Shown: positions 20,875 through 27,588 of the stretch, in pieces
Layout: every line of letters begins with the position of its first letter
Position numbering within the stretch: the first letter of the stretch is position 1
NCBI GenBank assembly: GCA_038062835.1
Contig: JBBTWH010000005.1
Coordinates: 20,699-84,698 of the forward strand
Source of the DNA: Patescibacteria group bacterium
GTDB lineage: Bacteria > Patescibacteriota > Patescibacteriia > SG8-24 > DYFX01
DNA length: 64,000 nucleotides
Direction of reading: 5' to 3'
Translations under genes and position numbers: made by a program
Notes under the pieces: model-generated
The model's input: only the letters and a program-made list of their open reading frames with translations
The model's database searches: none
What the model was told of the DNA's origin: nothing

Positions 20875-23493
<2,619 letters not shown>

Positions 23494-23588
23494 TACCACC
23501 CCGGCGGAGGCCGGGGCCCAGCGCTCAACGTCGTCATCCACCCGATTGTCATTCCCGCGCAGGCGGGAATCCGGAACCGGACGAACAC

Positions 23589-23618
23589 AAAAGAAGGCCT
23601 CACGGCCTTCTTTTGTGT
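23589..23618 (+). terminator. Rho-independent terminator of clpB
   Basis: aaaagaaggcc-tcac-ggccttctttt followed by gtgt. Confidence 0.8.
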
Positions 23619-23623
23619 AACGA

Positions 23624-24400
23624 TTACGGTCGAGTGGATTCTCCTAATAGTGGGAAGGCGTAGCGCGCATCTTTTTCAGTGGCGGCTGAAATTCCCACGG
23701 GCGGCCTTGCGAACGAGCCCGCAAATTTTGCGATAGAGACACGGCCAAGGAAGACGGCGACGATGTTCACGCAGGTCAGAAGGTTATTACGCCTCCCCGT
23801 ATCCGTTTTTACGTTGTAACCGAGCGTGTGGTATTTCACGTCTTCATTCCAAGCCAAGGCATCAAGATAGTGCAAGAAGGCTTCTAGGGGCATCCCGTAG
23901 GCGCTGGGGACTGTCTTTGAAATTTCATCGACGACTTCCTGCGGCGGTTCATACCTCCAAATTCCACTCGCGACTTCCTTGTGGTCGAGTACATAGGCGG
24001 ATCTGAACAGCAGACTACCGAGCAACTCCAAAGTCATTTCATCCTCTCTTCCGATTTTCTGAAGCTCTTCGAACACGTCGCGGAACGATGCGGGCGTTCC
24101 CACAATGGCCCCCTTTTGCTCAAGACAAGGGAGCATGTCGTTGGGGTTATTCCCGATGTGCCCATCCTTATACTTGCATCTGTCGTAATCTGGCGCAGCC
24201 TCCTTGCCGGGTTTTCCAAGCAAAATCCTATTATCACCTTTGGTCCAAACGGGTTGATAGGACTTTGCTTCTTGTGATGTGCCTGTCGGCCAAGAAATCG
24301 CCTCTTCAACCATGGCCAAGCGGACGAGCCCGCTGCGCTTCTTATCAATCTTGCCGGTTTCCAACAGTTGAGCAAGCCTATTTTCGCGTGCATCAGTCAT
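23624..24400 (-). CDS. Hypothetical protein on low-GC island, divergent from the DNA methyltransferase (candidate restriction endonuclease or other partner)
   Basis: The tracked ORF runs to 24655, but its first roughly 85 codons are antisense to the MTase start and promoter. Likely start is MTDARENRL... near 24400. About 52% GC versus about 65% in flanks. No recognisable family. Possible D..(18 residues)..DHK PD-(D/E)xK-like spacing. Confidence 0.45.
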   Translation of the reverse strand: MTDARENRLAQLLETGKIDKKRSGLVRLAMVEEAISWPTGTSQEAKSYQPVWTKGDNRILLGKPGKEAAPDYDRCKYKDGHIGNNPNDMLPCLEQKGAIVGTPASFRDVFEELQKIGREDEMTLELLGSLLFRSAYVLDHKEVASGIWRYEPPQEVVDEISKTVPSAYGMPLEAFLHYLDALAWNEDVKYHTLGYNVKTDTGRRNNLLTCVNIVAVFLGRVSIAKFAGSFARPPVGISAATEKDARYAFPLLGESTRP

Positions 24401-24517
24401 GTTTGTATGGTAACTTGATCTTCCTGTCCGTGTGGGATATATTATCAACAGGCCCGTTTTGACACGTTCGCCTGCAGTCATACTACCATTCTCACACCAT
24501 TGCAATATCAACTCTAT

Positions 24518-26260
24518 ATGGCAAAGCAATTGAGGGCAATCGACTTCTTCTGCGGTGCGGGCGGTTGGTCCGAAGGGCTCAGGCAACAGGGAATCAAGGT
24601 CGTGATGGGCATCGACAACTGGCGCCCGGCCGTCGAGACCCACAACATCAACCACGGCCTCAACGACGTCGTCGGTGACGTCTTGTCGTTGGAGGGCGAT
24701 GTCGATGCGACTATCGAGAAGCTTCCTGATACCGAAATTATCGTCGGCAGCCCGCCGTGCATCTCTTTCTCGATGTCGAACAAAGCAGGTAAAGCTGACA
24801 AGTCACTCGGTATCCGCCTAATCGAGGCCTACTTGCGCTTCGTCGCCGTGAAGAAGCACAAGAAACGTTCCATTCTGCAAGCTTGGTACATGGAGAATGT
24901 CCCGAACTCCAGGAATTTCGTGCAGAAGACGTACACGTTTGCTGATTTGAATCTTTCAGCTTGGGCCAAGAAGAACGGCAAGAATCCGAAGGCTGTCGCA
25001 CTGAACGTCCAGGACAACGGCGGGATTCTCTGCGCGGCGGACTATGGATCACCCCAGAGTCGTGAACGTTTCGTTTGTGGCGAAATGACAAAGCGCAACG
25101 GTTCCGTAAAGGTCGGTGAATTCTTGGCTCCGAAAGTGACCAACGCGAACAGCCGCGTAACGTTGGAGGACATCAAGGGAAAGATGCCGAAGCCGACGGA
25201 GAAGCCTGGGAACAAGGCTTGGGCAGATCCGAACTACCCGAATTTGAAATTGAAGGTCCAAGACATCACGGATCATTTCTACGACCCCGGTGTCTACCGT
25301 TCCGAATGGGAAAGCGCGAAAGCCGCCAAGGTGAATCACCCGTTCATGGGCAGAATGTCCTTCCCAGAGGACCGGAAGCGGCCGAGTCGGACGATTATGG
25401 CAACAAGGTCTGGAAGCACGCGCGAGGCCATCATCTACCCTTCCGAATGGGGTCATGTCGGCGACGGTCAGTATCGCCTCCCCACGATTCGTGAGGCGGC
25501 TTCCCTGATGGGTTTCCCTATCACCTACCAGTTCACGGGTGGTGAAGGATCTAAATGGCGGCAAATCGGCAATGCCGTCTGCCCGCACATGAGCGCCGCT
25601 ATCGGCGCGGCTCTCCGAAAGGCATTCGGCATGCGGCCGATTCCGGTCGCAAAAATCATGTTTGACGCCAAGCACGTGAAGGATGAGCGTATCCTGAATC
25701 TCAATACTTTTGCGCCGCGTTCCTACGACAAGCCGCCTCTTAGAAAGGCTGGGGCGAAGTTCCGACGTCAGCCATTCAAGTCTGGCAACATGACCGTAGC
25801 CCTGATGAATTTCGATCCTAGGGTGAGCATCGGTGCGGCTGTAGCCTCAGATTGGCGCGCTGTCGTCTTCGTGGGTGCCGGGAAAGTGTATGATACGGTC
25901 GAGCTGGGCCTTGATGACCTCCGGGTGCTAGAAACGAGCCTGGCCTCCCGAAAAGAAGGTCGCACATTCATTGCCGAGTTTGAGAAGAAGTTCGATGGTA
26001 AAGTCGCTCCTACCGCCGAGCTCCAAACCATCTTCGAAACGAACCAGCCTGGCACGAAGGCGCTCGCGCCCTCCGAACTCGTTCAGGCGGTTGCAGATCT
26101 CGCTGAGAAGGTCGGTAGCGGTCCTGCTCCGGTCACCAATCCCATCATGACGAGGGTCCGGAAGGCAGAAGTGCCCCATCAGCAACTGCTTGCCATGTAC
26201 GCCCTTGCGCGCATCTCAGCAGAAATCAAGCGCGCCGCGGCCGTTCCGGAGCCGGCTTGA
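24518..26260 (+). CDS. DNA (cytosine-5)-methyltransferase with about 200-aa C-terminal extension
   Basis: Motif I FFCGAGGWSEG, motif IV GSPPCISFS (PC catalytic Cys), motif VI ENVPN, motif X QIGNAV. Residues about 380-586 extend beyond the catalytic domain with no recognisable motif. Confidence 0.9.
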   Translation: MAKQLRAIDFFCGAGGWSEGLRQQGIKVVMGIDNWRPAVETHNINHGLNDVVGDVLSLEGDVDATIEKLPDTEIIVGSPPCISFSMSNKAGKADKSLGIRLIEAYLRFVAVKKHKKRSILQAWYMENVPNSRNFVQKTYTFADLNLSAWAKKNGKNPKAVALNVQDNGGILCAADYGSPQSRERFVCGEMTKRNGSVKVGEFLAPKVTNANSRVTLEDIKGKMPKPTEKPGNKAWADPNYPNLKLKVQDITDHFYDPGVYRSEWESAKAAKVNHPFMGRMSFPEDRKRPSRTIMATRSGSTREAIIYPSEWGHVGDGQYRLPTIREAASLMGFPITYQFTGGEGSKWRQIGNAVCPHMSAAIGAALRKAFGMRPIPVAKIMFDAKHVKDERILNLNTFAPRSYDKPPLRKAGAKFRRQPFKSGNMTVALMNFDPRVSIGAAVASDWRAVVFVGAGKVYDTVELGLDDLRVLETSLASRKEGRTFIAEFEKKFDGKVAPTAELQTIFETNQPGTKALAPSELVQAVADLAEKVGSGPAPVTNPIMTRVRKAEVPHQQLLAMYALARISAEIKRAAAVPEPA

Positions 26261-26672
26261 TTCCAGAAAGTGTCAGGAAGTTGAATATCTTGCCGGTCAC
26301 CTTTAGGCGATCGGTTTTGATTTCATGTTCCCAAACGCGTATATATTTCCAACCGAGCCTCCGCAGCTTCGCAAAATTACGACGGTCCCGGCGTCGGTTT
26401 CTCTCGATCTTATCTCGCCAGAACTTCTGACGAAGCTTGTGCCTCCAGGCCGGGTAGCGATACCCGTGCCAGAAATCGCCGTCTACGAAAATCGCGAGCT
26501 TTCGGCTCGGAATGGCGAGGTCGGGTGAGCCAGGCGCTTTCTTGTAGTGTTTCTGAAAGTGCACCTTACGCCTCCGCAACTCACGAAAAACAAATATCTC
26601 AAGGCTCGTGTTCTTACCGCGCACCCGCGACATGATGCGGCTACGGATTTCTTTGGAGAACTTGTCGGGCAT
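26226..26672 (-). CDS. vsr: Very-short-patch repair endonuclease (Vsr)
   Basis: FVDGDFWHG signature, basic about 148-aa protein. Convergent with the MTase and overlaps its end by 35 nt. Confidence 0.9.
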   Translation of the reverse strand: MPDKFSKEIRSRIMSRVRGKNTSLEIFVFRELRRRKVHFQKHYKKAPGSPDLAIPSRKLAIFVDGDFWHGYRYPAWRHKLRQKFWRDKIERNRRRDRRNFAKLRRLGWKYIRVWEHEIKTDRLKVTGKIFNFLTLSGIKPAPERPRRA

Positions 26673-26749
26673 ACGCCTCGATACTGTAACAAATCGCAGA
26701 CTCCCGCGTCTTTATCATTGGAGGTTGCTCCACCAAAATATATTTCCCT

Positions 26750-26962
26750 ATGTCCCACCACAACGATGCGCCCGGCATGAAAGGTTACCGCTCTCGTAAC
26801 GATGATGGCCAGCTGCGCGACAAGCGCGACGACACCCACATGGGCACGATCGAAAAGCAATATAACCGTGATTTCGACGTCCGATCTGACATGGAACTCG
26901 GAAATTTCCTCAAGCGCGAGGGGTTTAAGTCGCTAAATGACCTGCTCCGCAACGAGCGCTAA
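26750..26962 (+). CDS. Small hypothetical protein with C-terminal SAP/Rho_N-like helix-hairpin-helix motif
   Basis: 70 aa, charged N-terminal region, C-terminal DMELGNFLKREGFKSLNDLLRN. No SD seen. Sits in the lower-GC island. Confidence 0.35.
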   Translation: MSHHNDAPGMKGYRSRNDDGQLRDKRDDTHMGTIEKQYNRDFDVRSDMELGNFLKREGFKSLNDLLRNER

Positions 26963-27375
26963 TACAACCACTCTTCTACCCCGCCGTGATGGGAACAGGT
27001 GCCTCGGCGGTTCTGACTGAAGCTGTAGGTACCATCACGACATCGGGCCGAGGCGCCTGCAGGGCTTGAAGGTGCGTAATATGGGCTTGGTACCTCGTTG
27101 CCATCGACATTCGTGTACGTGCCGCTTGGCGCGTAGTCCGTAGTTGGCTCTTGCGTCTCAGGGGCCCATTTTATCGGTGTGTCGTCCTTCGCCGGTGCGA
27201 TTTCAGATACCTCTTCTACTGGTTTGATGGCTGGTTCAAGTTGAAACTGTGGCTGGACAATTGGTGCGGGCACCGGTGTCGAACTGGGACTCGGAACGTC
27301 AGCAACGCAACCTTGGCCAACAAGCGCCAGTGTTGCGAATAAAAAAGCTGTTTTTCTCCAAAAGCAAGGCATCAA
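26959..27375 (-). CDS. Lipoprotein with C-terminal DUF3761-like domain
   Basis: Signal peptide with lipobox (LVGQGC), Pro/Ser-rich linker, C-terminal CRDGTYSFSQNRRGTCSHHGGV matching the C.DG..S.S.....G.CS.HGGV pattern remembered for DUF3761. Confidence 0.6.
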   Translation of the reverse strand: MMPCFWRKTAFLFATLALVGQGCVADVPSPSSTPVPAPIVQPQFQLEPAIKPVEEVSEIAPAKDDTPIKWAPETQEPTTDYAPSGTYTNVDGNEVPSPYYAPSSPAGASARCRDGTYSFSQNRRGTCSHHGGVEEWLY

Positions 27376-27577
27376 AGTAGACGTCTTAGCGCAAATCCAA
27401 GAATACGGCGCGAGATATTTTTTGGATTACGTATGATTCCAATGAGTATTACGAGTGGAAGAATGGGTCCCAGAATCTCCCAAACAATTTTACGTGCCTC
27501 AAACCTGGCCCCTAACATTTGTGGAATGAGTGTCCATAGCATTTCTTGTGCCTGTCGCGAATCGAATTCAATCATAG
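27372..27577 (-). CDS. Small putative membrane protein
   Basis: Internal start MIEFDSRQAQEMLWTL... with one hydrophobic helix ILGPILPLVILIGII. About 42% GC locally. The tracked ORF's N-terminal extension overlaps the pirin gene. Confidence 0.3.
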
Positions 27578-27588
27578 GGTTACAAAAA

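Follow-up and report, generated by a model that had tools for sequence, protein, structure and literature searches.

We analyzed a 64,000-nucleotide stretch of the genome of a Patescibacteria group bacterium (GenBank assembly GCA_038062835.1, contig JBBTWH010000005.1, positions 20,699 to 84,698; hereafter, the window), which carries next to clpB a cassette of three genes: X, which codes for a protein of 258 amino acids (aa); M, a divergently transcribed 5-methylcytosine (m5C) DNA methyltransferase gene; and V, a vsr gene that converges with M. The evidence we gathered indicates that X is very probably the restriction component of this cassette, and that it represents a probable family of GATC-specific Type II restriction enzymes, putative from context alone. 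The module as a whole is likely a horizontally acquired Type II restriction-modification (R-M) cassette of the Sau3AI kind, with GATC as its most likely target. Type II R-M cassettes accompanied by Vsr are already known as systems, and what is new here is the family of the restriction component. By sequence, X appears to belong to a separate, unnamed family, unrelated to the GATC-specific families we tested (Sau3AI/MutH and DpnII/MboI). A first-pass annotation, made from the letters of the window, had described a low-GC set composed of an unrecognized divergent gene, an m5C methyltransferase, and a convergent Vsr, and had proposed an R-M-type module with the divergent gene as the restriction partner. 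Every feature it described is present in the sequence. The module proposal is supported by the linkage of X to methyltransferases across hosts and by an M family that comes with a divergent endonuclease and Vsr, and the comparative context likewise favors X, a putative nuclease, as the restriction partner. The other option then considered, in which X is a novel effector with no part in restriction, is unlikely in view of the methylase partners of X and its place in Sau3AI-type loci.

Gene X occupies positions 23624–24400 of the minus strand. The mechanically called open reading frame (ORF) extends from 23624 to 24655, and we placed the real start at the internal ATG at 24398–24400 (MTDARENRL...GESTRP) because of the alignment of homologs and of an identical 258-aa database protein (P0001, “hypothetical protein AAB554_01450,” from a Patescibacteria metagenome-assembled genome). 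As the first-pass annotation had stated for a divergent ORF of roughly 260 aa, X has no recognizable family: searches of Pfam (E ≤ 0.1), NCBIfam, PADLOC, and the PDB sequences (phmmer and profile) gave no family match. The one hit returned, a subunit of a mitochondrial ATP synthase, was set aside as chance. A word-index search recovered 218 homologs at E ≤ 1e-3, all of them unnamed or “hypothetical,” and a full scan of 1.84 billion representatives with a hidden Markov model (HMM) brought the family to 488 clusters at 50% identity, so X is a real gene. Family members are present in 38 of 185,579 species genomes, with a patchy distribution, indicative of mobility, over Candidate Phyla Radiation (CPR) bacteria, several archaeal groups (DPANN, Asgard, and methanogens, among them Methanosarcinales), Bacteroidales, Bacillota, Nitrospirae, Chloroflexia, and others. 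The homologs from Bacteroides and Phocaeicola carry the RefSeq name “hypothetical protein,” a tblastn search found no annotated relatives on plasmids or phages, and our literature search on new restriction-enzyme folds, PbrTI, and LexA-methylase fusions returned nothing specific to the family.

To survey the genomic context of the family, we predicted ORFs in every locus retrieved, searched them with HMMs of the neighboring genes, and compared the neighbors still unexplained with Pfam. A DNA methyltransferase was found beside X, or within a few kilobases, in every complete locus examined. The two genes may be divergent (L001, L004, and L006), convergent (L026, L031, and L035), or in tandem (L014, L039, and L043), and in one locus (L008) Vsr lies between them. 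The partner belongs to a tight family of m5C enzymes of ~410–445 aa in most loci, and to a second m5C family of 545–586 aa in the window, L022, L034, and L040; other partners are N6_N4 methyltransferases of 253, 387, or 620–640 aa and, in CPR bacteria, an N6_N4 enzyme fused to LexA. What stays constant beside X is “a methylase,” with family and orientation interchangeable, which is the pattern typical of a restriction gene. The N6_N4 enzymes among the partners suggest that protection against X can come from more than one kind of modification. For the small N6_N4 partner, the plasmid homologs, YhdJ-like enzymes of only ~39% identity, were uninformative as to specificity. All X loci with a Vsr gene have an m5C partner (the window, L008, L015, L033, L034, and L049).

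Two further kinds of neighbor were observed at these loci. In CPR bacteria, the methylase adjacent to X consists of an N6_N4 methyltransferase joined to a full LexA (LexA_DNA_bind plus Peptidase_S24), for a total of 481–488 aa, and the LexA part scores 180 bits against TIGR00498, above the cutoff. The fusion was located, always on the minus strand, at L027:6699–8165, L018:1363–2808, L024:1643–3097, L017:1179–2630, and L037:5724–6827, with a split version at L044:2038–2658 (minus strand). The fusion could be an SOS-cleavable or self-repressing R-M methylase; we found no description of a LexA-N6_N4 methylase fusion in the literature searched. A second link between the X family and S24 domains is P0138, a 393-aa protein from a 2.5-kb Joint Genome Institute (JGI) metagenome contig that JGI calls “LexA,” in which an X domain (residues 3–244) is followed by a C-terminal Peptidase_S24 of the LexA/UmuD type (264–382). 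The other neighbor is a DndB-like gene, found directly after X in one clade (L002:6910–7995 and L003:4177–5217, both on the plus strand) and also after a Sau3AI-type m5C methylase in a Paraclostridium plasmid (L052:4619–5839, plus strand), there with no annotated endonuclease. GATC cassettes of this kind may use DndB-like proteins as an alternative partner.

The relatives of the partner methylases connect X to the Sau3AI-type systems. We looked up the neighborhoods of three homologs of M (P0279, P0294, and P0300; 53–57% identity, ~98% coverage), and in all three the divergent neighbor codes for a ~460-aa endonuclease of the MutH/Sau3AI type (PF02976), with Vsr adjoining either the methylase or the endonuclease gene. 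Moreover, the layout of the window, with the restriction gene to the left, the methylase to the right, and a convergent Vsr, is identical in two of the three (L057/L059 and L061). M is therefore not an orphan methylase, an outcome the first-pass annotation had allowed for, as its homologs have a conserved divergent endonuclease neighbor and Vsr. This arrangement points to a non-orthologous replacement, in which X has the slot held elsewhere by a Sau3AI-like gene beside orthologous methylases. The ~420-aa m5C partners gave a similar picture: their plasmid homologs (43–48% identical) adjoin, or stand two genes from, genes annotated as “MutH/Sau3AI family endonuclease,” and one of them lies on a 4.8-kb plasmid that also encodes a “BglII/BstYI family” enzyme, a family whose site also has a GATC core. 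One Haladaptatus plasmid carries three genes side by side: a MutH/Sau3AI gene, a methylase of the Sau3AI type, and one of the window type (37% identity).

Some members of the family carry the connection within the protein. Sau3AI cuts with its N-terminal, MutH-like domain, and its C-terminal domain, which has no catalytic role, serves as an effector: it binds a first GATC and opens the cleft of the catalytic domain (bioRxiv 10.64898/2026.04.21.719898). Nine long members of the X family, of ~460 aa, have ~210 extra C-terminal residues, and a profile of this region matches the C-terminal domain of Sau3AI (7xm0 and 2reu; 4pxg residues 253–432) with E ~4e-22, as well as MutH with E 4e-7; it also aligns to the C-terminal half of the Sau3AI-like endonuclease of L056 (E 7e-14). 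At what we take to be the position of the catalytic Glu, judged by eye against the MutH sequence, the long forms have V, T, P, N, A, K, or Y, which is consistent with an inactive effector. In the long forms, the X domain thus stands in the place of the MutH-like catalytic domain of Sau3AI. Other, more distant members have N-terminal extensions instead (P0257, 658 aa; P0215, 377 aa; P0187 and P0240, ~340 aa), and in one distant extended member the C-terminal region weakly matches GmrSD_C, of the HNH type (E 0.0026, under the cutoff).

The avoidance of short palindromes in the hosts provided evidence on the target site. We compared the observed counts of the 16 palindromic tetramers with their maximal-order Markov expectation in 41 non-redundant X-bearing loci. 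GATC fell under expectation in all 41 and was the most depleted palindromic tetramer in 29. In the pooled loci, 969 GATC sites were observed against 1807 expected (observed/expected, O/E, 0.54; z = −19.7), and the next most depleted tetramer, CTAG, stood at 0.68. Several hosts have nearly purged GATC, with observed/expected counts of 0/40, 0/39, 1/30, 2/30, and 2/44. Since GATC is depleted with all three classes of partner methylase (O/E 0.28 for the ~420-aa m5C family, 0.74 for the ~580-aa m5C family, and 0.56 for the N6_N4 enzymes), we argue for one specificity shared by the family; as GATC contains both A and C, it would follow that adenine/N4-type and C5 methylases are interchangeable as partners. 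GATC is thus the probable site of X. A site other than plain GATC, either longer or degenerate around a GATC core (of the RGATCY or AGATCT type) or unrelated, and perhaps different from clade to clade, would agree with the plasmid shared by a ~420-aa partner homolog and a BglII/BstYI-family enzyme, with the modest depletion of GATC in the window (376 sites vs. 483 ± 20 in dinucleotide shuffles), and with the low count of AGATCT there (11 vs. 25 expected). Nevertheless, we consider it unlikely, because avoidance of a 6-bp site is insufficient to bring GATC down to 0–2 copies per 12 kb, as seen in several hosts, and because the window-type methyltransferase pairs with two-domain Sau3AI-like enzymes and the effector fused to X resembles the C-terminal domain of Sau3AI.

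Other tetramers also deviated from expectation. Within the window, no palindromic tetramer is as depleted as CTAG (12 observed; expectation 54 from the Markov model and 217 from base composition); we discarded it as the target, as it is not consistently depleted across the X loci, and CTAG is depleted in many bacteria generally. TCGA, GCGC, and AGCT are over-represented in the window. GGCC is nearly absent from L033 (0/25) and L045 (6/34), TCGA from L025 (2/30), and CATG was observed 11–25 times vs. 42–62 expected in three Bacteroidales loci (L026/L030/L039). These absences suggest further active restriction systems in the hosts of X.

GATC avoidance also bears on whether X could be a housekeeping partner of M and Vsr, such as a nickase that discriminates between strands in the manner of MutH, or a reader or regulator of methylation, which would leave M effectively an orphan. 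Vsr is a repair enzyme, some X proteins are fused to MutH-like domains, and LexA/S24 domains recur around X, all of which would fit such a role. We nonetheless regard it as very improbable. Avoidance of this strength implies lethal cutting, most X loci have no Vsr, the partner methyltransferase families are interchangeable, and a Pfam search found no helix-turn-helix or regulator domain in X. The rarity and patchiness of the family argue against a core repair gene, and the gene whose position X has taken belongs to a genuine restriction-enzyme family.

Restriction enzymes fall into a few catalytic superfamilies, namely PD-(D/E)xK, HNH, GIY-YIG, phospholipase D (PLD), and the PabI half-pipe (PMC10273834). 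The AlphaFold2 model of X, built from a 52-sequence alignment, has a mean predicted local distance difference test score (pLDDT) of 94.9 and a predicted template modeling score (pTM) of 0.92, and it consists of nine helices and three beta hairpins in an alpha/beta arrangement. When this model was compared by Foldseek with 350,542 PDB chains, the best E-value was 0.67, and none of the five superfamilies was among the structure matches listed. The only structure-level match with any support was a weak one in BFVD, an uncharacterized 198-aa protein of the Streptomyces phage BillNye (A0A2L1IVY4; E 4e-3, TM 0.44–0.55). In addition, hhalign gave a probability of 0.1% for a relationship with the MutH-like domain. 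The fold of X is therefore confidently predicted, and in the model it has no solved relative. Membership in the Sau3AI/MutH family (PF02976) was rejected, as the MutH-like catalytic domain was undetected by sequence, profile, or fold, and so were the HNH, GIY-YIG, PLD, and PabI half-pipe assignments, whose characteristic fold or motif is missing from X. A HEPN RNase (R133-x6-H140) was discarded on secondary structure and fold scores. Neither Pfam and NCBIfam nor Foldseek on the AlphaFold2 model provided a confident non-nuclease annotation or fold, a finding that would have spoken against the first-pass proposal.

The alignment of the family shows K63, G65, K66, E67, N85, D88, P91, F106, R133, N185, E186, D187, L193, G202, N205, T209, and G236 to be invariant, and D139, H140, K189, and R203 to be nearly so. 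Among them, E67, D88, D139, E186, and D187, together with K63, K66, K189, R133, R203, and H140, might make up the active site of a metal-dependent phosphodiesterase. The spacing of a D, 18 residues, and DHK that had been suggested as a PD-(D/E)xK site did not hold, since D120 and K141 vary across the family. X might also restrict by base excision, as a glycosylase/AP-lyase like PabI, or by nicking one strand, rather than by phosphodiester hydrolysis. Its predicted fold matched none of the restriction-enzyme phosphodiesterase superfamilies, and restriction glycosylases exist and were discovered through the same logic of co-mobility with methylases (PMC10273834). However, X is also unlike the PabI half-pipe or any glycosylase fold, and an invariant acidic cluster with lysines is typical of metal-dependent nucleases, so we find this chemistry improbable. 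It would, in any case, touch the chemistry only and fits the R-M reading.

Taking the fold together with the context, we tentatively propose, at somewhat less than even chances, that X adds a class of restriction enzyme, new in both structure and catalysis and outside the five superfamilies: a compact module of ~250 residues that would recognize GATC, break DNA by means of a new active site, and have been swapped both into Sau3AI-type systems and onto the Sau3AI effector domain. Several points weigh against the interpretation of X given here. The absence of a PDB match was established with a predicted model, and a very diverged, permuted PD-(D/E)xK core may be present. The Sau3AI-like C-terminal domain of the long forms could have an altered specificity. 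In L002 and L003, the nearest methyltransferase is 3.5 kb away, with the DndB-like gene in between. The assignment of GATC to X is indirect: many prokaryotes avoid GATC, the loci compared all carry X, and other GATC systems in the same hosts could contribute to the depletion. In the window itself, moreover, the depletion is no more than moderate (O/E ~0.8).

M is located at 24518–26260 on the plus strand (ORF 24500–26260, with the real ATG at 24518) and codes for 580 aa. It has motifs I (DFFCGAGG), IV (SPPC), VI (ENV), VIII (QSRERF, QxRxR), and X (GNAV); PF00145 matches residues 6–366 (E 8e-35, 121 bits, cutoff 22), and the PADLOC MTase_II profile also matches (E 1e-44). As TIGR00675 gives 84 bits, under its 100.65 cutoff, M represents a divergent m5C lineage. 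Its catalytic part, which has the PF00145 and MTase_II matches, spans residues 1–372 (24518–25633, plus strand) and is followed by a C-terminal domain of ~208 residues (373–580; 25634–26260, plus strand) that is conserved through the methyltransferase family, with the invariant pattern PP..R..P.K.G..TV.L.N...W...GK. The family is large, its members align over 97–98% of the 580 aa, and the C-terminal domain is also present in the Sau3AI-associated homologs examined; searches of Pfam and the PDB sequences found no relative of it. Hence, the description of M as a canonical m5C methyltransferase stands for the catalytic motifs and PF00145, but it had overlooked this unrecognized domain of ~200 aa. 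The Vsr call was correct: V (26226–26672, minus strand, 148 aa), with its FVDGDFWHG motif, passes the curated cutoff of TIGR00632 (99.4 bits, cutoff 97.85) and that of PF03852 (65.6 bits, cutoff 27). Members of the Vsr family nick at T:G mismatches that arise from the deamination of 5-methylcytosine.

Based on these observations, we can outline how the cassette may work. M would modify the cytosine of the site on host DNA to give GAT(5mC), as its family context suggests, and X would bind and break the unmethylated GATC sites of incoming DNA, probably as a Mg2+-dependent phosphodiesterase that uses the acidic cluster. The short X of the window would do so with no effector domain, and Vsr would repair the T:G mismatches left by deamination of 5mC.

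The cassette lies directly past the terminator of clpB, as had been noted in the first-pass annotation. clpB (20875–23493, plus strand) converges with X and ends ahead of a hairpin at 23585–23618, after which comes the stop codon of X. The hairpin has a perfect 15-bp stem (ACACAAAAGAAGGCC / GGCCTTCTTTTGTGT, arms 100% complementary) and a 4-nt loop, is flanked by T-runs on both strands, and is likely a bidirectional terminator between the two genes, to judge from its structure. At the other end of the cassette, the 3′ ends of V and M overlap by 35 bp. The GC content is 0.50–0.58 over 23600–27600 vs. 0.58–0.68 in the flanks, so the claim of lower GC was right in direction, although the contrast is somewhat smaller than stated. 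By gene, GC is 0.52 for X, 0.57 for M, and 0.54 for V vs. 0.63 for clpB, and third-position GC is 0.58, 0.68, and 0.65, respectively, vs. 0.875 for clpB; with both measures under those of clpB, and third-position GC well under, the cassette is compositionally foreign. We found no integration marks at the cassette, that is, no nearby tRNA gene and no flanking repeats. The order clpB-X-M-Vsr is also present in a relative, L064, whose clpB is 84% identical at the DNA level, and the acquisition is therefore older than the split between the two. X is the fastest-evolving of the genes shared with L064 (70% nucleotide identity, vs. 81% for M, 83% for V, and the 84% of clpB).

The divergent promoter region between X and M (24401–24517, 117 bp) is 88–93% identical to its counterpart in the relative (L064:2772–2887), above every flanking gene. 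Its lone GATC, at 24417–24420, is 17 nt upstream of the X start codon and overlaps a −35-like TTGATC (24415–24420), which is followed by TATATT (24438–24443) in the direction of M. It is tempting to speculate, from this placement, that the promoter GATC might render expression of the cassette methylation-sensitive. Beyond Vsr, low GC continues over 26750–27665, down to 0.45 at 27200–27599. This segment contains a 70-aa ORF on the plus strand, a gene for a 138-aa DUF3761 protein (26962–27375, minus strand; E 1e-23), and a 97-aa ORF. The flank is variable, as L064 has a different ORF, of 179 aa, after Vsr.

The X family, which is compact and widespread and which several independent lines of evidence tie to GATC, one of the best-studied sites, offers a testable candidate for a new DNA-cleaving fold, and its long forms, with X on the effector domain of Sau3AI, amount to a natural domain-swap experiment. 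Our reading of X would annotate 488 clusters that are now “hypothetical,” from CPR bacteria, Bacteroidales of the gut, and DPANN/Asgard archaea, and it bears on the genetic tractability of these hosts. The LexA-methylase fusions beside X hint at SOS-linked control of R-M.

Finally, we compared the cassette with known systems. Restriction glycosylases of the R.PabI half-pipe type set a precedent for enzymes outside the four classical nuclease superfamilies that were recognized by co-mobility with a methylase (PMC10273834), and X has no structural similarity to R.PabI. The DpnII/MboI enzymes that recognize GATC (~280 aa) are close to X in size, presumably share its site, and are also paired with GATC methylases; X was rejected as a member of this family (PF04556), as it has no Pfam match at E ≤ 0.1. 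The closest systems are those of the Sau3AI type (the MutH-family/m5C/Vsr cassettes of L056–L063). Sau3AI itself cuts GATC and is blocked by cytosine methylation of GATC. The window has in common with these cassettes the methylase family (53–57% full-length identity) and the inferred target, and the long forms of X share the C-terminal effector domain of Sau3AI. In contrast, catalysis in Sau3AI is carried out by a MutH-like PD-(D/E)xK N-terminal domain (PF02976), to which X is dissimilar in sequence, profile, and fold, and the X of the window, unlike Sau3AI, has no effector domain. The cassette also resembles the Dcm/Vsr-type pairs, in which, as in the window, the Vsr gene overlaps the end of the m5C methylase gene; however, Dcm is a solitary methylase, whereas the pair in the window belongs to a restriction cassette.

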